Shown: positions 6,133 to 36,892 of the stretch, in pieces
Position numbering within the stretch: the first letter of the stretch is position 1
Layout of the letters: each line of letters opens with the position of its first letter
From: a virus
Direction: 5' to 3' (one strand)
UHGV virus genome: UHGV-0391791
Length of the DNA stretch: 38,277 bases
Program-made: the position numbers and the translations under genes
The notes under the pieces: model-generated
What the model was told of the DNA's origin: nothing
Seen by the model: only the letters and a program-made list of their open reading frames with translations
Databases searched by the model: none

Positions 6133-6596
6133 TATTTTCTCTCCATGTGAAATCTGTGGAAATTAAGACCAAGAGCACCATAAGGCGCGGCTTCTTCAAG
6201 CCTGAATCCAAGCCAGTGCAGCCATGCTTTGGCAACGTGGTTTCGCTCGTCGACGTAGTTTTCCAGGCGCGGATAAACTGCCAGCATCTGCTGCAATACA
6301 GGGCGGCAGTGGCGAAGAAATGTCTTCTGATATTTTTCGATACGGCTGGTTCCGACCAGCCAGGGCGTACCATTGCCACCGATCATTGACGCCGGAGATA
6401 CGCCAAACATGGTTACCAGTTCTCCGTTCGCAAATCCTGACCAGGCCATAGTCGCAGTACGCAGACCAACACGCAGCGCATCTTCGGTAGTCATCAGCGA
6501 TACCGCATACAGTTCGTCAATATCAGCCTGACGAACATCCGGCAAAATCATCTGAAGATGCTCTTCGGTTGCGGGAATAATTTGAACATCGATCAT
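6132..6596 (-). CDS. Virion/tail-associated protein (154 aa)
   Basis: Track ORF; start abuts stop of the upstream tail tube B-like gene; structural operon context. Confidence 0.45.
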   Translation of the reverse strand: MIDVQIIPATEEHLQMILPDVRQADIDELYAVSLMTTEDALRVGLRTATMAWSGFANGELVTMFGVSPASMIGGNGTPWLVGTSRIEKYQKTFLRHCRPVLQQMLAVYPRLENYVDERNHVAKAWLHWLGFRLEEAAPYGALGLNFHRFHMERK

Positions 6597-9067
6597 CAGA
6601 ACCCCCCAACAGTAAGGCGAGGAATAACGGCAAGAACAGACAGCGGCAACGGGTCAAGCTGACGGATTTTTACACGTCCGTTTTTGCCCCAGTTACTGTC
6701 CAGTTTCACTTCTACTTTTCCGGTAGCATCATCAACAGGATCATCGTAGAACTCGAATTCACGCTGTGGATATTCGTACCATTTACCGCCAGGCGTAGTC
6801 GCCCAGATGCCGCGGCTGGCATTCACAACCAGAGTAACGGAGGGGATCACCTGTTTTTTGTCCAGCAGCGTTTCCTGTCCGTTAATGTTGATATCCAGTG
6901 TTTCGAATTCAGCAGTTATTGGCAGGCCGATGTGCACTACAGCCCCCGGAGATTCCAGTGTGACGGCACCTCCGGAAACAACTTTCTGTGGCTCAACATT
7001 CGCATCAGAAAGAATGTTTACGGTCTGGCCTTCAAGATGAGACAGGCCTCCAAATGTCCGGCGCGCCATCTGCCAGTTCGTGGTGGCCACATTCCTGAGG
7101 GATGGCGGGACGTTCCTGTTAGCACGAACCACTACAGCGGTATTGCTGGTTACAGAAATAATGTCGCAACGTAATTCTTTTGACACTTCATCGCCAGTAT
7201 CAGGATCAGTTCCGGTATAAGGGAACTGTAGTTGCGCGCCGACATCACTACTGGTGAAGTACGCACCACCAGAAACACTGATTGTATATTCCGCATGGTA
7301 ATCCCATTCACCAGAACCACCAGTGATGGTCATCGTTCTGTCAGACGTATTTCTTCCATCATAGCTAAGGCCAGAATCAACAAAGAAAGCATCTTCATCG
7401 CTGGTAAATAAACGGCTGGACAGTCGCTCGATGTATCTCACTGTTTGCCCGTTAACGGTTCGGTTAACGACGAAATACACCGCATCTTCATTGCCTTCGC
7501 TGATACTGCATGTGCTTTCATATTTTCCGGTACTGGATTGTGGTGCCCATGCAAAAACCTGCTGATCACGCAAATAGGTCATCACCAGTAATTTACCGTC
7601 ATCACGAATGCAGAAGGCACTGGAGTAAGGGACAATCGAGAAGCACCAGTCAACAATGCTGTGCTTCTGAAAAAGATGATTGGCAAGGATGGTCAGGTCG
7701 TTCCCCTGATAGCCGTCAACATCGAATGAGTAGGCCAGATCACGGACAACGCTGCCTTTCTCCTGGACGAACAGAGCAATATTCGCCACGGCAATTGGCG
7801 GGACGTTGCTTGAGCCATTTGATCCCTGAGAGCTGAATGCAAATGATGATGGGGTTAACACTTTGTTCTGGTCGCCGGTGATGACGTACTCACCTCCGGA
7901 AGTCAGCGCCACCAGAGAACCAACATCAATCAGGTGGCGGATCTCATTAACCTGACGTCCGGCATAGGTGTAGATAATTCTGTCGTCATCCTGCGTAGGA
8001 TTGCTTTTGCCAAAATCCTTATAATCCCCGGTACGGCTGGCCCAGATAGTCTGAGGAAACGCAGTCGATGCGGCGAAGTAAAGACGTTGTTGATAATAAA
8101 CAACAGTGCCAGGATAACCATTAACACTGTTCCAGGCATATTTAGCCCATTTATAGCTGGCATTATCCTCGCCAACGACCTGCGAAGGGATATAGGAAAT
8201 CACCTCAGCAGTTGCAGTAGTGCCATTTGCAGCAGTGATACGGGCAATGCCAAAACCACTGTGCAGATACTCCCACTCAATGCCAGTATCATCATCACCG
8301 GATCCGCCCCAGCCATCCCATGATGTGCCTTCTGTATGCGAAGGGCGCAAAGTACCTGTTTTGCCTGCTGTAACGGCGCGATAGTAGTTACTGTCTGCAC
8401 GGCGAATATCGCCAATCGACGTACTCTTACTGGTTTCCCATACCGGCACAGAATCCACTGCAGGCTGTTCCAGATAGAACAATTTGCCTACCTGCTCCGC
8501 GCCAAAAATAGAGGCGCTTGCCGTTAACGTAATTGTCCCGGTGCTGGCGCTGGCATAAACCGTCACTGACTCGTCAATATTGATATCTTCAAATGGCCCG
8601 TTCTTCGTTACCACATCAACCAGTTGCCAGTTGTCATGCGCATAGCGGCGCAACTCTTTCGGCGGGTATGCCGGATGAACCAGCGTAAGCACGTCTGCGC
8701 TTTGCGTGAATTTAATTCGGAACAGATCGGCTTCAGTATATGGCGTGGAAATTTCATAAATAACATTGCTGCTGTTCAGCACCAACGCACCATCTTTGAT
8801 AACGCGCATGTACTGGTGTCCGAACTCCAGAGCATAGGTCTGAACCGTCGAGAACTGGAACGGGATCAGGCGGCATTTCCGATTTGGGTATTTGGCGGCA
8901 CCGACAAAACGCGTACCAGGTCGATTCTCAACGCCGCCATACTGCCGCACGATAAAGTTATCGCACTTGCGCAATGCCACCTGGTACTTCGCCATGTCGA
9001 TACGACCGTACAACGACGGTCCAATCTCACCACCGGCAAAGCTGGGCTGTATCCAACTGATAGCCAT
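6596..9067 (-). CDS. Tail tubular protein B-like (823 aa)
   Basis: Track ORF; N-terminus MAISWIQPSFAGGEIGP follows the pattern recalled for T7 gp12 (MALISQSIKNLKGGISQQP); size close to gp12; directly follows the gp11-like gene. Confidence 0.6.
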   Translation of the reverse strand: MAISWIQPSFAGGEIGPSLYGRIDMAKYQVALRKCDNFIVRQYGGVENRPGTRFVGAAKYPNRKCRLIPFQFSTVQTYALEFGHQYMRVIKDGALVLNSSNVIYEISTPYTEADLFRIKFTQSADVLTLVHPAYPPKELRRYAHDNWQLVDVVTKNGPFEDINIDESVTVYASASTGTITLTASASIFGAEQVGKLFYLEQPAVDSVPVWETSKSTSIGDIRRADSNYYRAVTAGKTGTLRPSHTEGTSWDGWGGSGDDDTGIEWEYLHSGFGIARITAANGTTATAEVISYIPSQVVGEDNASYKWAKYAWNSVNGYPGTVVYYQQRLYFAASTAFPQTIWASRTGDYKDFGKSNPTQDDDRIIYTYAGRQVNEIRHLIDVGSLVALTSGGEYVITGDQNKVLTPSSFAFSSQGSNGSSNVPPIAVANIALFVQEKGSVVRDLAYSFDVDGYQGNDLTILANHLFQKHSIVDWCFSIVPYSSAFCIRDDGKLLVMTYLRDQQVFAWAPQSSTGKYESTCSISEGNEDAVYFVVNRTVNGQTVRYIERLSSRLFTSDEDAFFVDSGLSYDGRNTSDRTMTITGGSGEWDYHAEYTISVSGGAYFTSSDVGAQLQFPYTGTDPDTGDEVSKELRCDIISVTSNTAVVVRANRNVPPSLRNVATTNWQMARRTFGGLSHLEGQTVNILSDANVEPQKVVSGGAVTLESPGAVVHIGLPITAEFETLDININGQETLLDKKQVIPSVTLVVNASRGIWATTPGGKWYEYPQREFEFYDDPVDDATGKVEVKLDSNWGKNGRVKIRQLDPLPLSVLAVIPRLTVGGF

Positions 9068-14863: not shown

Positions 14864-14878
14864 TTACCTTTCAGGTAA
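14864..14878. promoter_or_regulatory. Operator-like palindrome TTACCTTTCAGGTAA, with a perfect TTGACA -35 hexamer at 14842..14847
   Basis: Perfect TTACC-N5-GGTAA dyad; identical 15-mer recurs at 34071..34085; intergenic. Confidence 0.55.
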
Positions 14879-15200: not shown

Positions 15201-15277
15201 GTGGCATTAGCTCAGTTGGACAGAGCAACCGCCTTCTAAGCGGTTGGTCGCAGGTTCGAATCCTGCATGCCACGCCA
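15201..15277 (+). tRNA. tRNA-Arg, anticodon UCU (reads AGA), phage-encoded, argU-like
   Basis: Manual cloverleaf: 7-bp acceptor stem GTGGCAT/ATGCCAC, D-arm GCTC/GAGC, anticodon stem ACCGC/GCGGT with loop CTTCTAA, T-arm GCAGG-TTCGAAT-CCTGC, discriminator G plus encoded CCA; 77 nt. Confidence 0.85.
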
Positions 15278-15320
15278 GAATCACGCCTAAGGACCGTGAT
15301 GCCAGAAGTTCCAGGTGCTT

Positions 15321-15364
15321 GGCGGTGATGGTTTCCCTTGAAGGACTATCACCGCCCTTTTTAC
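15321..15364 (+). terminator. Rho-independent terminator downstream of the tRNA
   Basis: 9-bp stem GGCGGTGAT/ATCACCGCC followed by CTTTTTTA. Confidence 0.5.
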
Positions 15365-15440
15365 AGCAGGACGCCATTGCGATGACTTCATGCTGTAAAC
15401 CAGTACAGCCACGGAAGGCATAACTCATTGCTTCCAGTTC

Positions 15441-15464
15441 GCCCGGTTCGCCGGGCATTTTTTT
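15441..15464 (+). terminator. Hairpin plus T-tract immediately upstream of the RBS of the 15476 gene
   Basis: GCCCGG-ttcg-CCGGGC followed by ATTTTTTT, then AAGGTGAG and ATG. Confidence 0.45.
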
Positions 15465-15475
15465 AAGGTGAGATT

Positions 15476-15853
15476 ATGAACGACCAGCAAATCGAAAAAG
15501 AAATCGTTGAGAAAGGCAAAACGGCACCGCGAATCACCCCGCAGCACATCGAAGACGTGATTATTAGTGAGCACTATTTCACGGCTGCAGAAGGGGTTCA
15601 TGGCGCTAATGAGCTTTTAAAACCGCATGAAAGCCCAATTGACTATTACCAGGAAGCGCACCCTGCTGAGTCACTTCTGACCTTCTGCGTCCTGGTGCTG
15701 CGCAACGGCTTCACCGTCACCGGAGAAAGCGCCTGTGCAAGCCCGGAAAACTTTGATGCAGAAATTGGTCGGAAGATTGCCCGGCAGAATGCTGTAAACA
15801 AAATCTGGATGCTCGAAGGTTACTTGCTGAAGCAGAAGCTAAGCGAGCAATAA
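15476..15853 (+). CDS. Hypothetical phage protein (125 aa), moron-like, opposite strand to the late operon; resembles Gp49-like phage proteins (recalled, unverified)
   Basis: Track ORF with SD AAGGTGAG; bracketed by terminators; C-terminal segment ...SPENFDAEIGRKIARQNAVNKIWMLEGYLLKQ. Confidence 0.5.
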   Translation: MNDQQIEKEIVEKGKTAPRITPQHIEDVIISEHYFTAAEGVHGANELLKPHESPIDYYQEAHPAESLLTFCVLVLRNGFTVTGESACASPENFDAEIGRKIARQNAVNKIWMLEGYLLKQKLSEQ

Positions 15854-15856: not shown

Positions 15857-15870
15857 CGTGACATGTCACA
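15857..15870. repeat. 14-bp palindrome CGTGACATGTCACA (copy 1 of 3)
   Basis: Exact 14-mer also at 18122..18135 and, inverted, at 36466..36479. Confidence 0.8.
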
Positions 15871-15873: not shown

Positions 15874-15900
15874 AGCCAGCCTATGAGCTGGCTTTGTTTT
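15874..15900 (+). terminator. Rho-independent terminator
   Basis: AGCCAGC-ctatga-GCTGGCT followed by TTGTTTT. Confidence 0.6.
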
Positions 15901-15943
15901 ATCCTCACCAGAGGATATCAACGACATGATCCCCACCAGCGGA

Positions 15944-17419
15944 TTAAGCATAGGGATCGTAATCTGTGATGGCCTTGCCTTGCTGGTTCTGCTGACCGGG
16001 AATTCGCAGACGCTTCGACACAGGGAACGCAAACGTCAGCAGTAGCGCATCGCCTTTACCAGGAGAACGCCCAAGTCGCTCTTTGATATCTTCCTTCGGT
16101 TCGATAACGATTTTACCGTCCACTCGAACTTTGTACTCTGCTGCCGACAGGTCGTCCGCTGTTTCCTGGTCATCAAGCATGCCGCCCAGCCTCAGCCATG
16201 TCTTGCATGAGTTGAACATCTCCCCACGCTTGTTGAGCATCTGCGGGTCAGTAGACGCGCCACCGAACTGAACAAGTTGCCATGTACGACCCCAGCCGTC
16301 ACCGATTGACTTCAGACCAGTTCCGTAACCGAAGTCGATGAACACTGCGTCAGCCTGGTACTGGTCTTCAAAGTCAGCGATACGCTTCGCCATAATCAGA
16401 TCGTCAGTGGTCTTGTTGCCAGTCCACAGCATCTTACTGTGTAGCCCCTGCCGCAGGTATATCACCGCGTCATCAACGCCTGAATATGCCGGGTCAACAC
16501 CGATTATCACCGGAGCATGCGCCACCTGCGCAGCGGTTACCACCCGTTTCATTGCCTCATCAGTAAGACCGGTAGGGATAAACTGCAATTCAGATGCATC
16601 AGGGAATATGCCGCGCACACGGATTTTAACGAAGTCGCTGTCTTCCCCGTAGTCATCAACCCATTTCTGCAACTGCTGTTTGTTAGTGCCTTCCACCGTC
16701 CGGCTGTCAATCTGCGCAGTTTTCCAGCGGTGTTTATATTTGCGGAAACATTCGCGGAAACGCCCGGTGTTACGTGTAGGGTTTCCGAACGCCACCCAGA
16801 TAATCTCAGTGTCTTCGTCCGTAAGCGCACCCTCAGCAACTTCCCACACCAGATCCGCAATGTTCGACGCTTCATCGAATACCACGATGATGCGTTTGCG
16901 CTCGTTGTGTAGTCCGGCGAATGCCTCAGTGTTGTGCTCAGACCAGGGGATTGCGTCAGCTCGCCACCGCTTGTCGTGCCCAGGATCATTGCTGTACATC
17001 GCGGTAGCGGTACAGGTAAACCAGTCTTTCGTGATAGCAAGGTTCGACCACTTGATAATTTCCGGCCAGGTCTTCGTTCGTAGCTGGTTGTCGGTGTTGG
17101 CGGTCACCACGACCTTACAATCCTCGCAAGTGGACATGCCCCAGTTGATCAGCATTGAGATGAATGCGGATTTACCAATACCGTGACCAGAAGCGCGTGC
17201 CAGCATAAGCGGCTGATAGCGCGTCTCTGGATTCTGCAGGTGATCACGTATCTCTCGGAACGCATCGGCCTGCCACTGACGTGGGCCGGTAGCATGTGCC
17301 AGTTCAGTCCCCTCTTCCCCCCAAGGGAACGCATAGAGGGCATAACCAAGCGGATCGTGAGTGAACCCTGCAATATCCTCGATTAACTGCTCTTCAGGAG
17401 ATAACACGGTATCTGTCAC
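15944..17419 (-). CDS. Terminase large subunit (491 aa)
   Basis: Track ORF; Walker A-like GHGIGKS; size; between small terminase and portal. Confidence 0.85.
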   Translation of the reverse strand: MTDTVLSPEEQLIEDIAGFTHDPLGYALYAFPWGEEGTELAHATGPRQWQADAFREIRDHLQNPETRYQPLMLARASGHGIGKSAFISMLINWGMSTCEDCKVVVTANTDNQLRTKTWPEIIKWSNLAITKDWFTCTATAMYSNDPGHDKRWRADAIPWSEHNTEAFAGLHNERKRIIVVFDEASNIADLVWEVAEGALTDEDTEIIWVAFGNPTRNTGRFRECFRKYKHRWKTAQIDSRTVEGTNKQQLQKWVDDYGEDSDFVKIRVRGIFPDASELQFIPTGLTDEAMKRVVTAAQVAHAPVIIGVDPAYSGVDDAVIYLRQGLHSKMLWTGNKTTDDLIMAKRIADFEDQYQADAVFIDFGYGTGLKSIGDGWGRTWQLVQFGGASTDPQMLNKRGEMFNSCKTWLRLGGMLDDQETADDLSAAEYKVRVDGKIVIEPKEDIKERLGRSPGKGDALLLTFAFPVSKRLRIPGQQNQQGKAITDYDPYA

Positions 17420-18012
17420 TGATTACCATCCTGACGTTCTTTGAGTCGCTTCCTGGCTGCTGCTATGCGATCAGCAATTGTCACATTCACATTAACATCC
17501 AGACGTTCTTTGAACGCGTTGACATCAACATGCTTACCAATCAGCTCAAGGTTCTTCACCTTGTCAGGCCATTTAATTTTTTTGAGGATTGTCTCTATCG
17601 AATCCTCGTTCATGTTCATGATGGTCGATGACAGATCAAAGCCACTAAGCGTAGTGCGCCAGATTTTCGGCCACTCACGGATTGGTTTAAGGCTCCCATC
17701 GTCGTTGAGGATATCGATCACGTCCATCTGGTCGATCTCCACCAGGCGCATGAGAACGTAATCAGCACTGACGCGCATTCGTTTGTTGCGCTCCTCCATC
17801 AACTCGGCAATCCGTTTTTGAATGCGTTCATCGCGCATCATGACACTGGCTTTAACTGCCGCTGTATTTGGGGAGAATCCTGCGTTAATCGCTGCCTGAG
17901 TCTGGTTTTCAGGCGTTTTGATGTATGACTGGCAATAAGCCTCCTGCATTGCTGTTAGTGGCTTAAATTGCGTTGATTTGCGTTTATAGGTTTTAGGTTC
18001 AGCAGGCATCAT
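17416..18012 (-). CDS. Terminase small subunit (start placed at MMPAEP..., about 198 aa; track start 18090 judged too far upstream)
   Basis: Track ORF 17416..18090; its first 26 codons span tandem DNA repeats and a terminator hairpin, so the internal Met-Met at 18012 is preferred; overlaps terL start. Confidence 0.6.
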   Translation of the reverse strand: MMPAEPKTYKRKSTQFKPLTAMQEAYCQSYIKTPENQTQAAINAGFSPNTAAVKASVMMRDERIQKRIAELMEERNKRMRVSADYVLMRLVEIDQMDVIDILNDDGSLKPIREWPKIWRTTLSGFDLSSTIMNMNEDSIETILKKIKWPDKVKNLELIGKHVDVNAFKERLDVNVNVTIADRIAAARKRLKERQDGNQ

Positions 18013-18018
18013 AACCAC

Positions 18019-18051
18019 CGTGGTAATAGTTACCGTTGTGGTAATAGTACC
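18019..18051. repeat. Tandem repeat GTGGTAATAGT(T)ACC x2 in the small-terminase leader; contains everted half-sites GGTAA-tag-TTACC
   Basis: Read directly: ccgtGGTAATAGTTACCgttgtGGTAATAGTACCatg. Confidence 0.6.
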
Positions 18052-18081
18052 ATGCAAAATAAAGCCGCCATAGTTGGCGGC
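18052..18081 (-). terminator. Rho-independent terminator on the minus strand just upstream of the small-terminase gene
   Basis: Minus strand GCCGCCA-acta-TGGCGGC followed by CTTTATTTTG. Confidence 0.55.
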
Positions 18082-18121
18082 AGTATTCAAAACCCATCAA
18101 ATTCATCATGCATAATCTACT

Positions 18122-18135
18122 CGTGACATGTCACA
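18122..18135. repeat. 14-bp palindrome CGTGACATGTCACA (copy 2 of 3), overlapping the stop codon of the 18131..18472 gene
   Basis: Exact match to copies at 15857 and 36466. Confidence 0.8.
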
Positions 18136-18472
18136 CTATTAATTTCGTTTCATGCCAGCCTTTAGTCACCCAGCATTGCGAGTCACCATTGCACGGGCAT
18201 GAATTCACAGGAACTCTCTCGCCGCACTTACCGCAACGTTTTCTGCTGATCGATTTTATACGCCCGCGCACGCGTGCATCATCCTGGCGGATCAGTAACG
18301 CTATATACTCACCAAATTCGTAAGGCGCACGCCCGGGGCGACGCGTGGCACAGTTACGCTCCAGCATTTCAATTTCCTGAGCATCAAGCACAATCTCCAG
18401 CTTACGCACACCAGATGCAGCTTGTCTGGCTCTCTGAGCGGCTTTGCGCTCTGCTGCTGATTTAGCCATCAA
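18131..18472 (-). CDS. Hypothetical protein (113 aa) with basic N-terminus and C-terminal Cys cluster (zinc-ribbon-like); last gene before the late operon
   Basis: Track ORF; C-terminus RKRCGKCGERVPVNSCPCNGDSQCW. Confidence 0.45.
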   Translation of the reverse strand: MMAKSAAERKAAQRARQAASGVRKLEIVLDAQEIEMLERNCATRRPGRAPYEFGEYIALLIRQDDARVRGRIKSISRKRCGKCGERVPVNSCPCNGDSQCWVTKGWHETKLIV

Positions 18473-18496
18473 TATTTACCTTTATCGCGAACATAC

Positions 18497-18718
18497 TTAG
18501 CTGTGTGTTGCCGATGTGCGGAGATTCTCTTCTATCAATTCCACGCATTCTGACCGACGAACAAATAATTCGTCTCCGTTATGAATTACGACATAGCCGT
18601 AAGCGGTTTTACGCATCACATCGAACTCATCCCATACGGAAATACCGCACTCTGCTAACGAGCAATCCAAATAATCTTCCGGATGCTTGTCGGTGTTATT
18701 AATGATGCGAATCCTCAA
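18497..18718 (-). CDS. Hypothetical protein (73 aa)
   Basis: Track ORF in the nin-like early cluster. Confidence 0.4.
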   Translation of the reverse strand: MRIRIINNTDKHPEDYLDCSLAECGISVWDEFDVMRKTAYGYVVIHNGDELFVRRSECVELIEENLRTSATHS

Positions 18719-18748
18719 ATCTTTTCACCTTTAAGGATAAGTTGCATG

Positions 18749-19345
18749 TTAGCCACGGTTAACCTCCTTCGGCGGTTCTGGTAGCGGCATCCAGTGGGTT
18801 ACCTCTTTGAGATACAGGTCTTCGCCATCACCGTCATCCCAAGTGGGATTGCCATCATTAAACCAGTCGCCATATACGCCGACCTGAGTGTTGGGGATGT
18901 TTGGCGGGTAGTTGTTTTTAAAGTCAGCTGCTAACACATAGCATTGTCGCTCTCCCATTTCTGGCATTCGCTCACTACAGCTTATCCAACCATCCGGAGT
19001 TACCGGAGAGTTGCCAGCGGCCTCGGGCATATCCGGACCTTTGCGAATAGCCTTTGCAAGCTCAACAGGGTCATCGTAAAGCCAGTCGCCAGTTTGTGGG
19101 TGATTTGCTTCTGCAAGCTGCGCAGCCCATTCAAGACCATCTTTTTGACCTTGGAGATAATCAAGCGGCAACTCTTCATGATTACTTGCAGGTTCGGCAC
19201 TATCAGCTTCGCGCCGCTTCTGTAGCTCTGCTGCCATTGCTCTCACGACTTCAACTGGTGCCCTTGCAGCAAACTCTATGTTGGTGATCAGCTCATTAAG
19301 ATATTGCTCGCCTGGATACTGTTTCTTATCGGTTATAGTGGTCAT
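18749..19345 (-). CDS. Hypothetical prophage protein (198 aa), DUF551-like C-terminus (recalled)
   Basis: Track ORF; Trp/Asp-rich C-terminal segment typical of small lambdoid accessory proteins. Confidence 0.5.
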   Translation of the reverse strand: MTTITDKKQYPGEQYLNELITNIEFAARAPVEVVRAMAAELQKRREADSAEPASNHEELPLDYLQGQKDGLEWAAQLAEANHPQTGDWLYDDPVELAKAIRKGPDMPEAAGNSPVTPDGWISCSERMPEMGERQCYVLAADFKNNYPPNIPNTQVGVYGDWFNDGNPTWDDGDGEDLYLKEVTHWMPLPEPPKEVNRG

Positions 19346-19355
19346 GTGTTACTCC

Positions 19356-19622
19356 TTAACCCGCAGTGCTTTCAACTGATGAGGGGAATAAAATCTTTTC
19401 ATCAAATCCGGCATTCATATCATGGACAGCAACACACCAATCCATCGACGAACGATTATCAAGAGCCTCCATGATTTCATCCATGCGGCGCAGGTCATAC
19501 AGGTAAATGCTTTTATCGCCAATGGTGTAAAAACCAATTTTTTTCGGTGATGGGCAGCGATCAAGAACGTCCTGTAATTCGCTCAACCATGCTTGTTCTT
19601 TTTTTGTCAAAGTTGCCATATC
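19356..19622 (-). CDS. Hypothetical protein (about 88 aa; start placed at MATLTKKEQ)
   Basis: Track ORF 19356..19661; internal Met gives start abutting the upstream gene stop. Confidence 0.35.
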   Translation of the reverse strand, partial: DMATLTKKEQAWLSELQDVLDRCPSPKKIGFYTIGDKSIYLYDLRRMDEIMEALDNRSSMDWCVAVHDMNAGFDEKILFPSSVESTAG

Positions 19623-20172
19623 ACTCTCCTTTGATGCCAATGCCAGCGGCGCGGGAATCATCCCATCGCTTTACTTCTTCACGAATTACGTCAATGCATT
19701 CTTTCGAATCCATTAGGTAATCTTCATCAAAAAGACGTTCCTGTTCGTTTTCTATCGCAACAATGATTGCTTCAACTAACTTTTGTGCCTGAGAACCACT
19801 TTCTAACTCTGCTATGCGCTTACTCCCATCAGAGATAACACCTTCGTAATACTCACGCTGCTCGTTGAGTTTTGATTTTGCTGCTTCCAGCTCAACGCGC
19901 AACTTCCCTACCGTTAGCGCAATATCCTCGTTCTCCTGGTCGCGGGATTTGATGTATTGCTGGTTCCTTTCCCGTTCATCCAGTAGTGCCAGCACGGTTT
20001 CTGGTCCGGCCAGAAATTTGAAGGCGTTGAGCGCATCAATATCCACACCGTAATCTTTAAGTTCCTGTTCACTTAACAAATCATCATCAGCTGGCAACAT
20101 TAACAGGCGTTCCATTGCTGGAATTGCACGTTCCGCCGCCTCACGCAGTGCCTGGTAATTAATTTCGCTCAC
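19621..20172 (-). CDS. Hypothetical acidic coiled-coil protein (183 aa)
   Basis: Track ORF; overlapping-stop coupling with neighbours. Confidence 0.45.
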   Translation of the reverse strand: MSEINYQALREAAERAIPAMERLLMLPADDDLLSEQELKDYGVDIDALNAFKFLAGPETVLALLDERERNQQYIKSRDQENEDIALTVGKLRVELEAAKSKLNEQREYYEGVISDGSKRIAELESGSQAQKLVEAIIVAIENEQERLFDEDYLMDSKECIDVIREEVKRWDDSRAAGIGIKGE

Positions 20173-20705
20173 TGGTTGCCTCCTTTGCGAAGCTGGGCAG
20201 CAAAGTCAACTAACCACTCAGTCATTTCAACCTTCCCTACCAGGTCTGAACCAGGGTGCATACAGCAATCACTCTGCGCCGCTTTGAAATCCTTATACTC
20301 ATATTCTTGGGCCACCAGATTTTTTGCAGCTTCTATAGCAGCATCCACGCCCTGCGCCCGTACTTCAGCCAGGAAAGCGTCGGTGGCTGGGGTGTCAACA
20401 CGGATGCTGTCGCGCAAGATGAAAAATGCATTGAGCATTCCAGTCTCTGGCACTTCATCCTGATGCTTCTCATACGCATCAAGAGCCTTCATCATCTCAT
20501 GTCCGAATGGTTGAGGGTGCGCAGACTTCAGCCCCGCACTCTCCGCTGCCAGCGCATTAGCACGCACCAGTTGCACTTCCAGTTGCGTTGCCAAATCGCT
20601 GAGCAGCTTTGCCACACTACGCATATCAACGGCACCACATTCAGCTTTCAGTTCCGAAGCCATCTCATGCCCGGCGGAAACTAACCCTTTGATATTACTT
20701 TCCAT
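20169..20705 (-). CDS. Hypothetical protein (178 aa)
   Basis: Track ORF in the early leftward operon. Confidence 0.45.
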   Translation of the reverse strand: MESNIKGLVSAGHEMASELKAECGAVDMRSVAKLLSDLATQLEVQLVRANALAAESAGLKSAHPQPFGHEMMKALDAYEKHQDEVPETGMLNAFFILRDSIRVDTPATDAFLAEVRAQGVDAAIEAAKNLVAQEYEYKDFKAAQSDCCMHPGSDLVGKVEMTEWLVDFAAQLRKGGNQ

Positions 20706-20766
20706 CTTTACCCTCGCTTATCCACATAACTTATTGATTACATTGATAACTAAAAAGATCGTCGAT

Positions 20767-21114
20767 TCAGAACTCTTCGATGTTCCAGCCGCCACCTGCT
20801 TTCTTTGGTTTAACCGTTACCCCGATGATTCGGAACGGATACTGATCTGCGGCTACTTTGGTTTTCACCCTGGCGTCGTCGGTCCAGAATCCCCCTTTCA
20901 CTTCGTGCAGTTCCATCTCTCCGGTGGCGAGCATCACAGCGAAATCGGGCGTATAGAACGTGTTGTCAGCTAACCGCAGCTTAATACCCTCGAATCGATA
21001 CCAGGCGATTTCCCCTGCACGTTTACGCTGCTCAAGGTGCTGGCAATACGCAGATTCTGTTTTGTTCATCTGGCCTGTTTTGAGTCGACCAAGAGCCTGT
21101 ATCTGTTTTCTCAT
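20767..21114 (-). CDS. Small putative PD-(D/E)xK-type nuclease (115 aa)
   Basis: Track ORF; motif ...YTPDFAV...ELHEVKG consistent with a D...E-x-K active site; SD GAGGT. Confidence 0.45.
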   Translation of the reverse strand: MRKQIQALGRLKTGQMNKTESAYCQHLEQRKRAGEIAWYRFEGIKLRLADNTFYTPDFAVMLATGEMELHEVKGGFWTDDARVKTKVAADQYPFRIIGVTVKPKKAGGGWNIEEF

Positions 21115-21117: not shown

Positions 21118-21132
21118 TTACCTCTAAGGTAA
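21118..21132. promoter_or_regulatory. Operator-like palindrome TTACCTCTAAGGTAA overlapping the RBS of the 20767..21114 gene
   Basis: Perfect TTACC-N5-GGTAA dyad 4 nt upstream of the start codon. Confidence 0.55.
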
Positions 21133-21179
21133 TTAAAAACCACATAAGACACGAAATCAATAGATTTTAGAATATTTTA

Positions 21180-21194
21180 TTACCCAACAGGTAA
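21180..21194. promoter_or_regulatory. Operator-like palindrome TTACCCAACAGGTAA
   Basis: Perfect dyad; an AT-rich promoter-like stretch lies between it and site 21118..21132. Confidence 0.55.
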
Positions 21195-21204
21195 TTATCA
21201 AGAC

Positions 21205-21231: not shown

Positions 21232-22032
21232 TTACTTGATAAATCCTGCCGCCTTTCCCCGCCTGTATTCCTCCATCAGCCACTGCGCCGGTGTTATTCC
21301 CCCAAGGGTGGCGGCGTTAGGCATGCACCCGAAACTTCGCCCTGGTGGATGGTAAACGTCTCTCCCTGTGTCCGGAGGCGTACTCATGGGTTCTGGCTTT
21401 GCCTGTATGCTGATCACCGGATCGGGTATCTGCTGTCCGGAAGCCACCTTTTTCGCCCAATCATCGAGCAGCCTGCGTGCGTGTTTCTCAACCTCAATCT
21501 CGCTAAGCTGGCGCTGATACATTGCGCGGCGGGTATCACATACGACCCAGTACATAACCGGATGTCGCCACGGGAATCTTTCGGGACCACCAGGATATAA
21601 ACTTTTTTCCTTGCTGTACCGGTGAAACTCCGCCATCACATCGTCAATGGTGACGCCAAGAACCATCTTGCTGTCTTTGCACCACTTGATAAATTGCCCT
21701 GGAGACGGCCAGAACGGAGATTCACTGGCGCGGGCGTGGCGCATACCAGCAGAAACCTGTTCACGGGTTCGGATCCCCCCTTCGGCAAACGCAGCAATCC
21801 ACTGCTGTTTTGCAGCAACTTCCTGCTCTGGCGTCTTCAGGTTGGTTACCACTGCCGCCGGAAACAGTTGTTTCAGCTGTTTAAAAAGGGCATCAACAAG
21901 CCTCTCTGCTGACATGTTCACCACATTGTCATTGTTGACGTACTGATGCTCATAACCTGACATGCGAGAAAGGGCTTCTCCGTCACGGTTTTGTATCGCG
22001 GTAAAAACGTTGTTCACAAGAAATCCTCCCAT
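21232..22032 (-). CDS. Replication protein P-like (helicase loader)
   Basis: Track ORF; segment ...QWIAAFAEGGIRTREQVSAGMRHARASESPFWPSPGQFIKWCKD matches recalled lambda P (...QWVLAFRENGITTMEQVNAGMRVARRQNRPFLPSPGQFVAWCRE). Confidence 0.75.
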   Translation of the reverse strand: MGGFLVNNVFTAIQNRDGEALSRMSGYEHQYVNNDNVVNMSAERLVDALFKQLKQLFPAAVVTNLKTPEQEVAAKQQWIAAFAEGGIRTREQVSAGMRHARASESPFWPSPGQFIKWCKDSKMVLGVTIDDVMAEFHRYSKEKSLYPGGPERFPWRHPVMYWVVCDTRRAMYQRQLSEIEVEKHARRLLDDWAKKVASGQQIPDPVISIQAKPEPMSTPPDTGRDVYHPPGRSFGCMPNAATLGGITPAQWLMEEYRRGKAAGFIK

Positions 22033-22829
22033 GCTTCAGGGCTGTTCCAGTGCGGAACGTTGTTATCAGGTAATGTTGATTGCTTCTGTCTGCTAATCTG
22101 CAGCCGCCTTGCCAGCTTCTGCTCCCACTGTGCCTGATGGTATGCCTTACCCTCAGCCATCCAGTAAATTCTGAACTCTGCAAGTTCCTGTGCCGTTGGC
22201 AGACTGTCCAGGTAGATCCCCTGCAATGAGCTTTTCCGAAGAAAGTCATCTGATGGCTGCCATTGTTCATGCATGACAAATTTGCCTAATTGCCCTGGCC
22301 CACCAGGAGGAACAAAGTTATTCATCACGGCGTTGTTTGCGTCGGGGTCATGAGGCACAGAATCCCCGTTTTTTGTCCTGCTCTCCCTCTCTTGGTTAAA
22401 TGACTGGTTATATGACTGGTTCTGGATCCCGTTTTTGGGATCATTCAACATCCCGTTTTTGGGATCATTCAACATCCCGTTTTTGGGTATATTCCCGTTT
22501 TCGGTAACATTACCGTTTTCGGGTTCATTGCCCCCCTCCCGGTTGCCTTTAATGTTCCCGTTTTTGGTTATATTAAGAGAGAAAACCCGCACTCTTTTTG
22601 TCGCTCCCTTTCTCTCTCCGGTATCTGAAATAAGCCCCATTTTCATGAGCGATATAAGCCCGGCCTGCACGGTTTTTTTATTCAGGCAAGTGTCTTTAAC
22701 GAGGCGTTCTATGCTGGGGTAGCAGAGGTTATATTCATCGGCTCTGTCAGCCATCGAGAGCAGTATGAGCTTTAATGATGAGCTACCTGGATCTGTCTCC
22801 CAGGCCCAATCTGTTGCATGTCTGCTCAT
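22014..22829 (-). CDS. Replication initiator O-like protein with origin iterons inside the gene
   Basis: Track ORF; N-terminal HTH-like region, central Asn/Gly-rich peptide repeats encoded by DNA iterons; directly upstream of the P-like gene. Confidence 0.6.
   Translation of the reverse strand: MSRHATDWAWETDPGSSSLKLILLSMADRADEYNLCYPSIERLVKDTCLNKKTVQAGLISLMKMGLISDTGERKGATKRVRVFSLNITKNGNIKGNREGGNEPENGNVTENGNIPKNGMLNDPKNGMLNDPKNGIQNQSYNQSFNQERESRTKNGDSVPHDPDANNAVMNNFVPPGGPGQLGKFVMHEQWQPSDDFLRKSSLQGIYLDSLPTAQELAEFRIYWMAEGKAYHQAQWEQKLARRLQISRQKQSTLPDNNVPHWNSPEAWEDFL
22418..22570. repeat. Putative replication origin: about six iterons with core CCCGTTTT(T/C)GG, flanked by tandem TATGACTGGT repeats
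   Basis: Read directly: atcattcaacatcccgtttttggg repeated twice exactly, with further CCCGTTTTCGG / ACCGTTTTCGGG / CCCGTTTTTGG copies. Confidence 0.55.
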
Positions 22830-23152: not shown

Positions 23153-23172
23153 AAAGACCGCCGGGTGGCGGT
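23153..23172 (-). terminator. Hairpin between the Cro-like gene and the next leftward gene (tR1-like position), weak T-tract
   Basis: AGACCGCC-gggt-GGCGGTCT; downstream run on the minus strand is only TTT. Confidence 0.3.
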
Positions 23173-23195
23173 CTACAGAGGGTTGTGGCTGGATA

Positions 23196-23462: not shown

Positions 23463-23477
23463 TCACCCATAAGGTAA
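23463..23477. promoter_or_regulatory. Operator site (variant TCACCCATAAGGTAA) in the spacer of a leftward PR-like promoter
   Basis: Minus strand TTGTTA-17 nt-TATTAT with the dyad inside the spacer. Confidence 0.45.
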
Positions 23478-23493
23478 CAAAAATCAAGGATAG

Positions 23494-23508
23494 TTACCTA
23501 TGGGGTGC
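23494..23508. promoter_or_regulatory. Operator site (variant TTACCTATGGGGTGC)
   Basis: Perfect left half, degenerate right half; lies between the two other sites of the divergent region. Confidence 0.3.
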
Positions 23509-23510
23509 AT

Positions 23511-23525
23511 TTACCTGTTGGGTAA
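23511..23525. promoter_or_regulatory. Operator site TTACCTGTTGGGTAA (perfect) in the repressor/Cro divergent region
   Basis: Perfect TTACC-N5-GGTAA dyad. Confidence 0.6.
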
Positions 23526-24222: not shown

Positions 24223-24237
24223 TTACCTTAAGGGTAA
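24223..24237. promoter_or_regulatory. Operator site TTACCTTAAGGGTAA upstream of a rightward PL-like promoter
   Basis: Perfect dyad; promoter TTGACA at 24257..24262. Confidence 0.6.
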
Positions 24238-24256
24238 TTTTTTTAACTCATATCTA

Positions 24257-24285
24257 TTGACACCAAACCAAATACGCATAATCAT
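24257..24285 (+). promoter_or_regulatory. Sigma70-like promoter (TTGACA with weak -10 TAATCA/CATAAT) for the rightward early operon, flanked by two operator dyads
   Basis: Perfect -35 hexamer; -10 candidates at acceptable spacing. Confidence 0.4.
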
Positions 24286-24299
24286 TACCTCAACGGTAA
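24285..24299. promoter_or_regulatory. Operator site TTACCTCAACGGTAA overlapping the -10/+1 of the PL-like promoter
   Basis: Perfect TTACC-N5-GGTAA dyad. Confidence 0.6.
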
Positions 24300-29339: not shown

Positions 29340-29620
29340 AAACCATTTTCATGACGGTATGAGAGTATACCTTTAAGGTAATACCGTCACCTGTACCGCC
29401 GAAAAATATGGTGTAGAGTGAATAGAAATGAATACATAAAAACAAAAACCCTCTGCAAAAACAGAGGGTTGAGTTGGCATCTGAATAGGAATGATTTGCT
29501 ATGAGTTAGCTGTTAATCATTCCCACTCAATTATTTACGATACACATAAACAATTGACTGATAACAACTTTCTTCCAAATGATTTTCACCGTACCGTTTT
29601 ATATACCGTCACCGGAAATC
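29340..29620. other. Candidate attP: arm-type repeats TACCGTCACC (29382, 29604; inverted copy 29352; partial 29587) flanking a 9-bp inverted repeat GGAATGATT/AATCATTCC (29488..29523)
   Basis: Repeats read directly from the sequence; location adjacent to the integrase start. Confidence 0.35.
29438..29468 (-). terminator. Rho-independent terminator ending the leftward tailspike-lysis operon before the integrase
   Basis: Minus strand CCCTCTG-loop-CAGAGGG followed by TTTTTGTTTTT. Confidence 0.6.
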
Positions 29621-31503: not shown

Positions 31504-33966
31504 TCAATTCCCTGTTAATTGCAAAACTTGCTCTTCCAGCTTTTTAACCCTGCGTCTCATCATCGCAGATTCCAGAATCAGAGCCTCTTCATAACGGATA
31601 CCGTAACATTCACCAGCCTCGACGGCTTCGCGTACCAGAACCTTTGTCTGTATAAGTGGGTAAACTCCTGCAGAATGCTCTTCTTCCGTCACATCCCTGT
31701 ATTCTGCCGGGGTCTCATTCCACTTGTCATAACAGATAAATGCCAGTCGTGACACATCTATGCCTTCATTCTGAAATACACTGATAACATGCTGCGCAAC
31801 TGCACCAAAGTGCCATCTTGCTCCGTCTTTACCTTTCACTTCGATCCTGTCAAGGTACTGGTATGAAACCCATTCCACTCTTTCCCATGCGTCCAGTATT
31901 TTCTCATCAATAACCTCTGGAGCAGTCTTGAAACGCGCATCGGACAGCACCGTAAACGCTGACTGGGTAAATCCCCCCGACCATGCACGACCAGCCAACC
32001 CAAGAGAATAAGTATTCGTTGTCGATGGTGTCATGGCTGAATCAGAAAACTGTATATATTCTGAATTTCCAGTAGATATTCGAATATTTCCATTTATTAG
32101 CGACATAGTGCCTTTAGTATTATCACTATTGAATAATTTCAATTGCGAACTTATACCGCCTCCCACAGCCAGAGATACATCGCCTTCAGCAAGCATTCTG
32201 AATTTATCTGCAGAAACAAGCGTCTGGTTAGCAAGGTTAAAATATTTAACCCACCATTCAAAACGCCCTGACATAGTCCCAACGTACTGACCAAGCGCAG
32301 GGACGTGAACAACATTGCTATTTGTAGTGCCGTCTATACTGGAAATACCAGTCACCGCTGATGCAGAACTCAGAATATTATTTCTGTCACCCGGATGTTT
32401 AATTTCAACAAAGTTCCTGATACACCCTTCCTCGAAGGTAACCACGCCGGAAGAACTATACATGGGGAATATTGACGCATAATTACTGCGTGCAGCATCT
32501 AAGAAACGAATGGTTGTAGATGTCTGCAGATCTCCTGATTCATTTTTCCCATCACACCCAGTCATTAGAATATTACTGGCAATATTATTATTTCCCTGAA
32601 CGGTGACTCCGTGCGCCTGCTTTGCGTCCGATTCAGAGTAATCAACCAGCACATTCGAAATCAGGTTACCAGTCCCCTTGCCAACAACTACTGCGGCGTA
32701 TTTTGGGTTGTTAGCCATTACACTGCTAATGATATTATTCGTTGGGGCAGTTTCCGTCTCAGTTCCATTGTAAACAACGTGCTGACACTCTTCACCAATA
32801 ACATTGCTGACAATGTTATATTTTGCTGCTGTTTTAAGTTCCACTGCACCAAACTGAGGATAATTTCTGGCTATCACACCATCAATTAGCGTATTTTGCG
32901 ATGAATCAAAAAGCACACAACCTGCTTTTTTATTATTTGCGAACCCTAAATACTCTCCTCTTATATCTCTAACAATGTAACCTGACGGAATACCATTATT
33001 CGGATAAGCGATCAAGCTAAATCCTGTTCCTCGCGTATTTGTAAATCTGATATTTTTAACCGATACATCATGGCCACCTGAAAATGACACCTGGTGTCCC
33101 TGCACACTATCATCTGATTTATTTCCCATAATTGTTAGCGTACTAAGCATGCCACCATCGGGCATGTTAAAAACCAGATGATTACCATCTCTGTCATACT
33201 GTTTTATCGTTCCCCCACCTGTTCCGTACAAGCCACAACGTGAAAGAGAAACTAAAGATGTATTGAATACCCCTTCCGGAACAAAAACACTGCTAAACGA
33301 ATGTAATGATTTTGTAAAAGCATCCTTGTTATCATTTAAGATTCCATTTTGAGCTCCAAAATCCTTAATGCTGACACCATCACGCATCTTATCCTGGAAC
33401 GTTCTGTATACCGCTCCAGAACCATACTGAATAAACCAACCAAAACCACCAATAACTCCGGCGATTGCAGCATCGACATAATTACGCATTGAGCGATTAT
33501 TTACAGCGTCCTGCTCAAGTGATGGATCGGCAAGGTTAGATATTCTGTTTTGCTTTGCATCGTAATATTTTGCAAGCAAAGATGGTTTCATCAATGCACG
33601 TCTGAACCACCCAAAACATCGCTGGATCAGCATCGTCAGGTAGTCAAATGCATCCTCATGAACTTCGGGGAAAAATTTTCCCTGATTGCGAAGATCAGTC
33701 TCCTGCACCACATCAAGCACACGCTCTATCGTGATTCGCCAGCCAGCAGCAAGCGGCGACGGAAGAACCACTGCACCGCCACTATAAGTTCCCGCCCCTG
33801 TTACCGTATAACCAGCATCCAGCACTAGTTTTGTAACGTTACCGTTAAGGTCAGACACCTGAACAACCAGGTCGGATTTTTTGAAAATACGGAAGGTATA
33901 CGGAAATGATGTCGTAACGCCGTTACCTGTGTATTCGTTGTGGTCAACTTCGGTTGAGACCGTCAT
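31504..33966 (-). CDS. Tailspike / tail fibre (820 aa) with C-terminal intramolecular chaperone (peptidase S74-like) domain
   Basis: Track ORF; Asn/Gly/Ser-rich central region; C-terminal block ...SDARFKTAPEVIDEKILDAWERVEWVSYQYLD...GARWHFGAVAQHV typical of self-cleaving chaperone domains. Confidence 0.8.
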   Translation of the reverse strand: MTVSTEVDHNEYTGNGVTTSFPYTFRIFKKSDLVVQVSDLNGNVTKLVLDAGYTVTGAGTYSGGAVVLPSPLAAGWRITIERVLDVVQETDLRNQGKFFPEVHEDAFDYLTMLIQRCFGWFRRALMKPSLLAKYYDAKQNRISNLADPSLEQDAVNNRSMRNYVDAAIAGVIGGFGWFIQYGSGAVYRTFQDKMRDGVSIKDFGAQNGILNDNKDAFTKSLHSFSSVFVPEGVFNTSLVSLSRCGLYGTGGGTIKQYDRDGNHLVFNMPDGGMLSTLTIMGNKSDDSVQGHQVSFSGGHDVSVKNIRFTNTRGTGFSLIAYPNNGIPSGYIVRDIRGEYLGFANNKKAGCVLFDSSQNTLIDGVIARNYPQFGAVELKTAAKYNIVSNVIGEECQHVVYNGTETETAPTNNIISSVMANNPKYAAVVVGKGTGNLISNVLVDYSESDAKQAHGVTVQGNNNIASNILMTGCDGKNESGDLQTSTTIRFLDAARSNYASIFPMYSSSGVVTFEEGCIRNFVEIKHPGDRNNILSSASAVTGISSIDGTTNSNVVHVPALGQYVGTMSGRFEWWVKYFNLANQTLVSADKFRMLAEGDVSLAVGGGISSQLKLFNSDNTKGTMSLINGNIRISTGNSEYIQFSDSAMTPSTTNTYSLGLAGRAWSGGFTQSAFTVLSDARFKTAPEVIDEKILDAWERVEWVSYQYLDRIEVKGKDGARWHFGAVAQHVISVFQNEGIDVSRLAFICYDKWNETPAEYRDVTEEEHSAGVYPLIQTKVLVREAVEAGECYGIRYEEALILESAMMRRRVKKLEEQVLQLTGN

Positions 33967-34085: not shown

Positions 34086-34122
34086 TTTGCAAAACGTGCT
34101 GGATAGCAAACAAATTATTTGC

Positions 34123-36271: not shown

Positions 36272-36433
36272 ATGAAAAAAGCATTTGCTGCACTGTTCGT
36301 TTTGTTGTCTCTGGTAGCTTCAACTCAGGCCTTTGCCGGTCGTTGTCAGCACGACAGCGACACTGCTGCTGACGGCTCCCGCTGCGGTGGGCGTTCTGCG
36401 GATTCCCGCCCGGGTGGCGGTGGCATTCGTTAA
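36272..36433 (+). CDS. Small ORF for a putative secreted peptide (53 aa, signal peptide MKKAFAALFVLLSLVASTQAFA)
   Basis: In-frame part of track ORF 36200..36433; typical Sec signal with AFA-G cleavage motif; weak SD, so uncertain. Confidence 0.3.
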   Translation: MKKAFAALFVLLSLVASTQAFAGRCQHDSDTAADGSRCGGRSADSRPGGGGIR

Positions 36434-36464
36434 AAACAAGGCCGCGAAAGCGGCCTGTGACATG

Positions 36465-36845
36465 TCACGCAACGCAATTATTACCGCGCCATGTAACATT
36501 TTTAATAATCTTATCAGCACCAAACTCAACGTAAACAGAGCAACTGAAATGGAGTGTATAACCGCCATCAGTTGTTGCGTATGTGTTTGAATATATAGTA
36601 TTACCAATTAGATTAGACGTAGTATTATACGTTGTGGTTTGTGGTACGTTATAACTACCAGAGCTTGAGTAAACATACACTCTGTTTCCATCTGGAGATG
36701 TAATCTCTCCCTGAGGATACCCCCACTGCTGAACCATTGCGTCTATACTCTGCCCGCGCCACGTAAGCATATTTCTTTCAAACTGTGCAGCTGACTGGCA
36801 TCCAACGAGAAGCATAAATCCAAAAATCAAAAATACTTTTCTCAT
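36465..36845 (-). CDS. Lipoprotein (about 126 aa; signal peptide MRKVFLIFGFMLLVGC)
   Basis: Track ORF 36465..36881; internal ATG at 36845 preceded by SD AGGGG; lipobox LVGC; Tyr/Thr/Asn/Ser-rich mature part. Confidence 0.5.
   Translation of the reverse strand: MRKVFLIFGFMLLVGCQSAAQFERNMLTWRGQSIDAMVQQWGYPQGEITSPDGNRVYVYSSSGSYNVPQTTTYNTTSNLIGNTIYSNTYATTDGGYTLHFSCSVYVEFGADKIIKNVTWRGNNCVA
36466..36479. repeat. 14-bp palindrome, inverted copy TGTGACATGTCACG (copy 3 of 3), overlapping the lipoprotein stop codon and next to hairpin GGCCGC-gaaa-GCGGCC
   Basis: Reverse complement is CGTGACATGTCACA, identical to copies 1 and 2. Confidence 0.8.
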
Positions 36846-36892
36846 AATTACCCCTATCATGGAAAAACAGCACCAATCCACAAATTAACTAG

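Follow-up and report, generated by a model that had tools for sequence, protein, structure and literature searches.

A palindrome, a terminator and a candidate regulator at the early-to-late junction of an epsilon15-type phage

The junction between early and late genes

The UHGV virus genome UHGV-0391791 (38,277 nucleotides, the whole stretch of DNA analysed here and called the window) is the complete, circularly permuted genome of a temperate E. coli phage of the epsilon15/phiV10 type (Uetakevirus). Its late genes lie on the minus strand and its gene order is that of epsilon15. Our subject is the point at which the early genes give way to the late genes, where the last early gene (18131..18469, minus strand, stop codon 18133..18131), encoding a 112-residue protein of the family PHROG 536, is followed by the small-terminase gene terS, the first late gene (17416..18012, minus strand). 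Positions 18012-18134 are best explained as an early-to-late junction carrying three stacked controls: a palindrome, an intrinsic terminator, and one full plus one degenerate repressor operator. Several E. coli genomes contain prophages that match the ~2 kb around the junction at 100% identity; over parts, this DNA is 84-98% identical to phiV10, TL-2011b, epsilon15 and Tyrion. The features listed in a preliminary description of this DNA (terminator, repeats, palindrome and gene) all lie where it had placed them. The epsilon15 record already carries the terminator, the operator and the label of the 112-residue gene; the literature searched appears not to describe the conserved protein-palindrome pairing or its link to terminators.

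The terminator, which we call tA (18055..18083, minus strand), comprises a hairpin, GCCGCC-AACTAT-GGCGGC (18081..18064), followed by TTTATTTTG. The stem is of 7 bp with six G-C pairs, and the predicted RNA fold has an energy of -16.2 kcal/mol (z = -4.1 relative to shuffled sequences). With its G+C-rich hairpin and U-tract, tA is a predicted intrinsic terminator, as had been proposed. The hairpin is kept in epsilon15, Tyrion, SPN1S, 66FD and Klebsiella phi13.3, and the epsilon15 RefSeq record labels the equivalent hairpin a rho-independent terminator. Within 18013-18130 no Rfam family was found, and between tA and the terS start codon we could recognise no sigma-70 promoter, so that late expression plausibly needs read-through of tA. 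The preliminary description had offered two routes to late transcription, such read-through or an activator acting at the repeats beside terS; the first thus remains plausible, whereas the second is unlikely from the nature of those repeats, given below.

We take terS (198 residues; Pfam Terminase_2, E = 1e-29) to start at ATG 18012, ~43 nucleotides beyond the T-tract of tA. The equivalent ATG is used in the epsilon15 and Tyrion records, and the Terminase_2 domain begins at residue 19 of this form of the protein. The Prokaryotic Genome Annotation Pipeline (PGAP) and the SPN1S record start the gene at an upstream TTG, 18090 in the window, a choice that would translate tA and the operators into a TITTTVTITT stretch. 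ATG 18012 (or 18009), with a GGTGG ribosome-binding site, suits epsilon15, Tyrion and the Pfam domain better than does TTG 18090.

Between tA and the terS coding region lie two copies of the motif TTACC-N5-GGTAA. One, TTACC-GTTGT-GGTAA (18030..18044), is an exact match to the OR/OL motif; the other, TAACC-ACCGT-GGTAA (18012..18026), has one mismatch and overlies the terS ribosome-binding site and start codon. The window holds 14 matches to the motif at no more than one mismatch, ten of them exact, where 0.52 would be expected. They include the OR operators (23463..23525, copies at 23463 and 23511), which lie between the cro-like gene and the repressor gene, and the OL operators (24223..24299, copies at 24223 and 24285), which flank a leftward promoter, TTGACA-17-AATCAT. 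In the epsilon15 RefSeq record the equivalent of the 18030 site, at 12-27, is annotated as a repressor site. The central operator in epsilon15, Tyrion and Klebsiella phi13.3 keeps its half-sites while the 5-bp spacer varies, a pattern typical of DNA to which a protein binds. The preliminary description had noted a tandem repeat, GTGGTAATAGT (18020-18030 and 18038-18048, 18 bp apart), and had taken the GGTAA-tag-TTACC within it for operator half-sites in everted orientation, at which an activator might act. That string is literally present, but with operator copies starting at 18012 and 18030 it is simply the boundary between two neighbouring operators, of the same kind as those of OR and OL. 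The repeats near terS look like canonical prophage-repressor operators, and an activator role for them is unlikely. That the operators and tA are what they seem we regard as very probable.

A small protein family and its palindrome

The open reading frame (ORF) 18131..18472 had been described as encoding a 113-residue protein with a basic N-terminus and a cysteine cluster. The gene is genuine and both traits stand, but homologues begin at ATG 18469, which gives 112 residues. The protein matches PHROG 536 with E = 8.3e-55 (residues 2-112, profile positions 2-114 of 115), a family that includes epsilon15 gp49 (~77% identical to the window protein) and N15 gp46 (~35%); Pfam and NCBIfam gave no above-threshold family. 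PHROG 536 is small, with 154 clusters at 50% identity. Its name, 'transcriptional regulator', is annotation only, and we found no experimental study of the function of any member in the literature searched. The gene is invariably the last early gene ahead of terS in the Uetakeviruses epsilon15, Tyrion, SPN1S and 66FD, and in Vibrio-type relatives the family gene stands at the position of lambda Q, before promoter-terminator cassettes and, beyond these, the lysis and terminase genes. Such positions make the 112-residue protein a plausible candidate for a regulator.

An alignment of 59 diverse family members shows a basic N-terminus (RK..QR.R, with R8 and R13 at least 90% conserved) and a pattern compatible with strand-helix-helix. 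It also shows a cysteine motif, C-x2-C-G-x2-LP...GC...C-W, in which C79 and C82 are invariant and C99 is at least 90% conserved; the fourth cysteine of the cluster lies at the conserved 'GC' position. The prediction that the front half of the protein is a ribbon-helix-helix (RHH), a DNA-binding fold, is sound. The protein is also predicted to carry a four-cysteine zinc finger with a weak likeness to TraR/DksA. A profile search of PDB sequences gave TraR (E 0.02) and YbiI (E 0.04) as its top matches, aligned to residues 48-109, and comparison with TraR by hhalign gave a probability of 71%. Residues 48-109 are predicted to follow the TraR/DksA order of a helix, a zinc finger and a second helix, and they carry the C-x2-C-G-x2-(L/I)-P signature; unlike in those proteins, the second cysteine pair is not CxxC and the would-be channel helix is also helix B of the RHH fold. 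The C4 group of TraR/DksA proteins, which includes lambda Orf73, binds RNA polymerase in its secondary channel. None of the 59 members matches Pfam zf-dskA_traR, and we treat the TraR likeness weakly, as a lead only. A preprint on the TraR of VP882 was set aside, as that protein is a stand-alone TraR homologue and not a member of PHROG 536.

A relationship to the Ogr/Delta activators had also been raised. P2 Ogr and P4 Delta are likewise small cysteine-cluster phage proteins linked to late-gene control, but Pfam scans gave no sign of kinship: the window protein has no match to Ogr_Delta at E values up to 1, and of the 44 Pfam families to which the 59 members gave matches, the 25 most frequent do not include Ogr_Delta. 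The P2 late-promoter element is TGT-N12-ACA, which the palindrome does not resemble.

DNA homologous to the gene also occurs in the lambda-like phage Chlobot (L110, 6994-7472), within the exo-xis accessory region. The homologue is annotated there as two ORFs, a 'UmuD-like protein' and a 46-residue 'transcriptional regulator', which probably reflects a split gene or a wrong gene call. At a distance of 1.5 kb there is a further gene, of the DksA-like zinc-finger kind.

The palindrome, GTGACATGTCAC, occurs three times in the window. Site A (18123..18134) contains the TGA stop codon (18133..18131) of the 112-residue gene and would be the cognate site of that gene's product. Site B (15858..15869) lies just beyond the end of terL, 4 bp ahead of the terminator of a plus-strand moron, and site C (36457..36468) overlies the stop codon of a 138-residue lipoprotein-like ORF (36881..36465) and abuts a second late-strand terminator, tC. 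Epsilon15 (2142, 19517 and 39612) and Tyrion (2702, 20377 and 41755, one copy spanning the record ends) each have three copies at the same three junctions, where 0.035-0.041 copies per genome are expected in these three phages. The equivalents of site B are those at 2142 in epsilon15 and 2702 in Tyrion; those of site C are at 19517 in epsilon15, where the copy overlies the stop codon of gp18, and at 20377 in Tyrion. The six Uetakevirus relatives all have TGTGACATGTCACGA unchanged, with variation in the adjacent codons. Only the 2-bp spacing of the half-sites is enriched: at spacings of 0, 1, 3, 4, 5 or 6 bp, or with the half-sites everted, there were no matches in the window, epsilon15 or Tyrion, and a 3-bp centre is also absent from N15. 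We did not find the 12-mer in the literature searched, and it is unannotated in the phage records.

The association extends well beyond the Uetakeviruses. In N15 and in P2-like, Mu-like and Vibrio-type phages, whose contexts we took from look-ups of single representatives, GTGAC-N2-GTCAC accompanies homologues that are 28-45% identical to the window protein. It overlies the stop codon of N15 gene 46 (with two further copies in that genome) and those of the homologues in P2-like Yersinia 56.17, L101 and L106; it lies 15 bp past the stop in L098 and ~140-230 bp downstream in Vibrio K253 and L097, each of which has three copies, one of them just ahead of terS. In Mu-like L108/L109 the copy GTGACTGGTCAC (5349-5360) falls within a C-terminal extension and codes for V-T-G-H; the retained palindrome sits where other homologues end. 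The motif is absent from the gene end in L104/L105 and L107, and the viral-contig scan with a distant family member gave one locus. As the motif stands beside homologues so diverged, the palindrome is most simply explained as the family's cognate DNA site, and we consider it probable from this co-occurrence that the protein binds there.

One further observation concerns spacing: K253 (L096) has, beside its three copies with a 2-bp centre, one GTGAC-N3-GTCAC, with a spacing like that of the host matS site. Two other identities for the N15 copies were rejected. The sopC sites of F are of the TGGGACC type. The SopB sites of N15 depart from this F sequence at one base in each half-site (PMC2910045), so the copies are not dispersed SopB centromeres; in L104 an F-like GGGACCACGGTCCC adjoins the palindrome but is separate from it. 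Nor are they Cro/CB operators, since none of the three N15 copies lies in an annotated operator region.

Terminators, late cassettes and cargo genes

A terminator finder was run on the window and epsilon15, and there all six copies of the palindrome lie 0-41 bp before a predicted intrinsic terminator. In Tyrion, judged by eye, the same hairpins follow closely behind sites A and C. The three junction hairpins differ in sequence; the palindrome alone is common to them. Site B precedes the plus-strand terminator (15874..15901) of the moron, a Gp49-family gene (15476..15853), and site C precedes tC (36431..36456, minus strand). Among the three strongest late-strand terminators of the window's late region, tA and tC, which polymerase must cross, have the palindrome; the terminator at the end of the late operon, beside attP (29470..29447), is without it.

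Read along the late strand, each site closes one unit and opens an island of terminators, opposite-strand morons or an antirepressor module, and behind each island a repressor operator shows where the following unit starts. Following site A, terS and terL (17419..15944, minus strand) lead to site B and the plus-strand island of tRNA-Arg and the Gp49-family gene. The operator at 14864..14878, whose epsilon15 equivalent (2931-2947) is annotated 'repressor', then stands ahead of the portal/head unit. The portal, head and tail genes run on the minus strand across the window ends to the tailspike gene (33966..31504), after which come the lysis genes, attP and the integrase gene. Site C marks the end of the portal-to-tail unit, the last gene of which is the lipoprotein-like moron in the window and gp18 in epsilon15.

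The cargo at these borders varies. The 138-residue ORF (36465-36881), which has a lipoprotein-type signal (…LLVGCQS), is inserted ahead of site C and stops at the TGA of the palindrome. The island between terL and the portal unit (15201-15853, plus strand) holds tRNA-Arg(TCT) and the 125-residue Gp49-family gene in the window; the same slot holds gp50 in epsilon15, and gp53, gp54 and a DUF551 gene in Tyrion. It seems that the palindromes stay in place while the cargo genes beside them are exchanged.

The spacer between site A and tA (18084..18122, minus strand) is itself such a place, as it holds the 3' tail of a 70-residue gene that is deleted in the window. In relatives of the L013 type the palindrome is followed by a ribosome-binding site, a 70-residue ORF ending ...GATGAATTTGATGGACTTTGA, and then the same terminator; this gene (MPKIRYDLED..., L013 4357-4569) is intact in ~25 related viral contigs. 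The window keeps its last ~20 bases as a deletion scar; the 18 extra bases of the window spacer, which include a -10-like CATGAT, are this tail. A promoter with the GTGACA of the palindrome as its -35 element was rejected for the window, since that -10-like element is the tail of the deleted gene, and with it goes the idea of a promoter overlapping the palindrome.

In other phages the site introduces a recognisable cassette. Three loci, those of L098 and L106 and that of the N15 copy at 28550, share one order: site, near-consensus promoter (TTGACG-18-TATAGT, TTGACA-17-TATCTT and TTGACG-18-TAGAGT), leader of ~70-190 nucleotides, strong terminator, and then late or lytic genes, these being lysis/terminase genes or the N15 antirepressor operon. 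The promoters in relatives were read by eye from the sequence rather than scored by a tool. In K253 and L097 a strong terminator lies ~200-230 bp after the site with a probable TTGAAA-type promoter between. The gene in L107 is followed by the same cassette of promoter (TTGACA-17-TATTGT), leader and terminator, there without the palindrome. N15 has a second annotated promoter-terminator pair, upstream of its lysis genes, that is available to the N15 Q homologue, so the two N15 regulators could have separate targets.

The Vibrio-type cassettes also carry short direct repeats between palindrome and late promoter: TGACCAC(A/G)AAAAG, ATGCAAAA and ACCACAAAA, each present twice (L098 8414-8466; L106 5399-5449; L096 (K253) ~33290-33345). 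These may be sites of another factor.

The early genes of the window begin, in minus-strand order, with the cro-like gene. Between it and the next early gene lies a hairpin, AGACCGCC-ACCC-GGCGGTCT (23174..23155), with a weak U-tract; it occupies the position of lambda tR1 in a phage for which no N homologue was found. Next are the O-like and P-like replication genes (22829..21232, minus strand) and a nin-like region (21114..18131, minus strand) that ends with the 112-residue gene. Reading into the nin-like region is a promoter-like TTGATA-16-TAAAAT (21174..21201, minus strand) with an operator in its spacer (21180-21194), and another operator (21118-21132) stands just ahead of the first nin-like gene.

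Further operators lie in the antirepressor region, at 34071, 34452 and 35467. The antirepressor module itself (34071-35394, plus strand) sits inside the late region and begins with an operator (34071-34085) and a near-perfect LexA box, TACTGTATAAATATACAGTT (34123-34142). It contains a 90-residue ORF, the Rfam RNA isrK (34503-34579), a C4 antisense RNA (34604-34688) and a 218-residue antirepressor-like ORF whose C-terminus resembles the 90-residue protein. These components identify the module, at the level of sequence, as a predicted RNA-controlled anti-immunity system of the P1 immI / N15 immC type. A LexA box (CTGT-N8-ACAG) with a small ORF also occurs within one or two small genes of the PHROG 536 homologue in three unrelated phage types: Klebsiella phi13.3 (L087, 4282-4620), N15 (L004, ~6560-6600) and Yersinia 56.17 (L085, ~4450-4510). 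The LexA-linked small ORFs are probably SOS-controlled antirepressors of the antC/Tum kind.

How the late genes may be switched on

The preliminary description had seen no N-like or Q-like protein, and we also found none: no early-region product matches an N or Q family in Pfam or PHROGs, and none is so named in the PGAP or RefSeq annotation. The layout nevertheless recalls lambda Q and its PR'-tR' target. As in lambda, the candidate regulator gene closes the early operon, its putative DNA site lies beside it and a terminator stands before the late genes; the Vibrio-type relatives add the near-consensus promoter and leader before the terminator that precedes the lysis and terminase genes. The window has the terminator of such a layout but no convincing promoter at the junction. 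Unlike lambda Q, the protein has no match to the Q families (of lambda, 21 and 82) in Pfam or PHROGs and would have an RHH plus zinc-finger fold; its palindrome lies upstream of or away from the promoter rather than between -35 and -10, and extra copies lie by internal terminators. The family is thus Q-like in layout only.

These features suggest the following scheme. In a lysogen, repressor would shut the early promoters, while tA, together with repressor bound beside terS and over its ribosome-binding site, would keep terminase off. Upon induction, transcripts from the repressor-controlled early promoters would cross the nin-like region and give the 112-residue protein, which would bind the palindrome beside its own gene as well as sites B and C. 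A site beside the protein's own gene favours action in cis; lambda Q also favours action in cis. Once bound, the protein would allow RNA polymerase through the junction terminators and on into terS-terL and the late units beyond; an unrelated protein would here provide a delay switch like that of Q. Directly observed are the elements and their conservation, the association of motif with family and its adjacency to terminators. The proposal that the protein, by binding the palindrome, promotes terminator read-through towards the late genes is tentative, and we give it less than even chances. Read-through is its most inferential part, and taken by itself we would likewise put it below an even bet. 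More speculative still is the extension that PHROG 536 is an unrecognised class of DNA-site-dependent antiterminators, in which the RHH domain would read GTGAC-N2-GTCAC and the TraR-like zinc finger would touch RNA polymerase; such a class might replace Q in epsilon15-like and many Vibrio-type temperate phages and control a separate terminator-gated operon (immC) in N15.

Several points weigh against this scheme. RHH proteins are usually repressors. Binding of the palindrome by the protein is proposed from their co-occurrence, and the likeness to TraR is weak and under every Pfam threshold. No palindrome accompanies the tR1-like terminator (23174..23155) that follows cro. The terminator beyond site B belongs to a moron on the opposite strand, and read-through there would yield antisense terL RNA. 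The distance from site A to the terminator is 23 bp, 41 bp or a whole inserted gene, and relatives have either the 70-residue gene or a LexA-controlled 85-residue gene between site A and tA, so purely local action at site A is unlikely. Finally, the family co-occurs with Q in N15 and the N15-like contig L104, with a 72-residue regulator at the ogr position in P2-like Yersinia 56.17, and is present in Mu-like phages with Mu-type regulation. As these phages have late regulators of their own, the family is not a universal late-gene switch. The suggestion that the zinc-cluster protein is a late regulator therefore survives as a candidacy based on gene position, but with the palindrome rather than the repeats as its likely site.

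The strongest competing explanation needs no dedicated late regulator. Repressor alone would control the late genes: tA would be a leaky attenuator, and loss of repressor would both open the early promoters and clear the operator roadblocks. Operators at terS, the portal unit and the nin promoter, together with those of the divergent antirepressor/tailspike region, would suffice for such one-tier control. The 112-residue protein would then do another job at the palindromes, such as autoregulation or shut-off of morons or antirepressor in the manner of P22 Arc/Mnt, and this accords with the mostly repressive roles of RHH proteins and with the coexistence of the family with Q and a probable Ogr elsewhere. 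The LexA box and small gene after the homologue in Klebsiella phi13.3, N15 and Yersinia 56.17 recall the Arc/Mnt-ant module. Unlike that module, however, the window junction has no antirepressor gene (the module being at 34071-35394), and Arc and Mnt, the RHH regulators of the P22 antirepressor, have no counterpart to the zinc finger of the 112-residue protein or to its terminator-linked sites. Moreover, passive leakage through tA, with its 7-bp G+C-rich stem, good U-tract and -16 kcal/mol fold, would yield little terminase. Repressor-only control also leaves unexplained why palindromes lie right before terminators in six of six cases in the window and epsilon15, and why promoter-leader-terminator cassettes occur in Vibrio-type phages that have no other candidate regulator. 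We judge it possible but unlikely.

The bound protein could instead act as an insulator or roadblock, strengthening termination or blocking polymerase at the ends of units and so isolating the moron and antirepressor islands. The sites do lie at the 3' ends of units beside terminators, including that of the opposite-strand moron at site B, and RHH proteins typically block transcription. A roadblock at site A, however, would close the sole evident route into terS-terL. The protein would also come from a repressed operon and be absent in the lysogen, where insulation of morons would matter most, and in Vibrio-type phages the site is upstream of the late promoter rather than between promoter and genes. 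Such a role seems improbable.

Slightly less probable again is an architectural or host-directed function, in which a MatP-like bridging protein acting at a matS-like site would loop the phage genome, or would bind host matS and disturb the terminus macrodomain or cell division. Like MatP of enterobacteria and vibrios, the 112-residue protein would be of the RHH type, and the GTGAC and GTCAC half-sites are identical to those of matS, which has the 13-bp consensus GTGAC[AG]N[TC]GTCAC (PMC3603311). The three dispersed sites per genome and the presence of the gene in the exo-xis accessory region of a lambda-like phage would also fit. However, the palindrome in the phages examined is of 12 bp with a 2-bp centre, not 13 bp, and the domain make-up of the two proteins differs. 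Homology to MatP was rejected by profile comparison (hhalign probability 0.7%), the predicted model of the 112-residue protein has no four-helix bundle or coiled coil, and the adjacency to terminators is left unexplained.

A classical late activator, acting on a junction promoter through the half-site repeats or through the palindrome with its -35-like GTGACA, is very improbable. Promoter-like sequences can be drawn at the palindrome (GTGACA-18-CATGAT in the window, 9/12; in epsilon15 and Tyrion, GTGACA-17-TAAATT), but the repeats look like operators of the repressor, the window CATGAT is the tail of the deleted gene that relatives keep whole between palindrome and terminator, the transcript would begin at the terminator hairpin, the palindrome centre in other phages lies at ~-48, -66 and -93 from the nearest promoter (read by hand) with no helical phasing, and the downstream promoters are near-consensus and should need no activator.

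Terminator read-through promoted by the 112-residue protein at the palindrome would bear on phages of the epsilon15 type, which are models for structural work and serotype conversion and of which phiV10 serves as a reporter phage. We found no account of how their late genes are switched on, in a search that did not cover the primary epsilon15 and SPC32H papers. If the protein and palindrome do control read-through, a textbook problem would have been solved with a new protein, one whose family occurs in temperate phages of podo-, sipho- and myovirus types that infect enterobacteria and vibrios. The recurrence of one 12-mer at the borders of the islands that gain extra genes would then be explained as well. 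The near-identity of the site to host matS raises the question of cross-talk between the phage protein and MatP.

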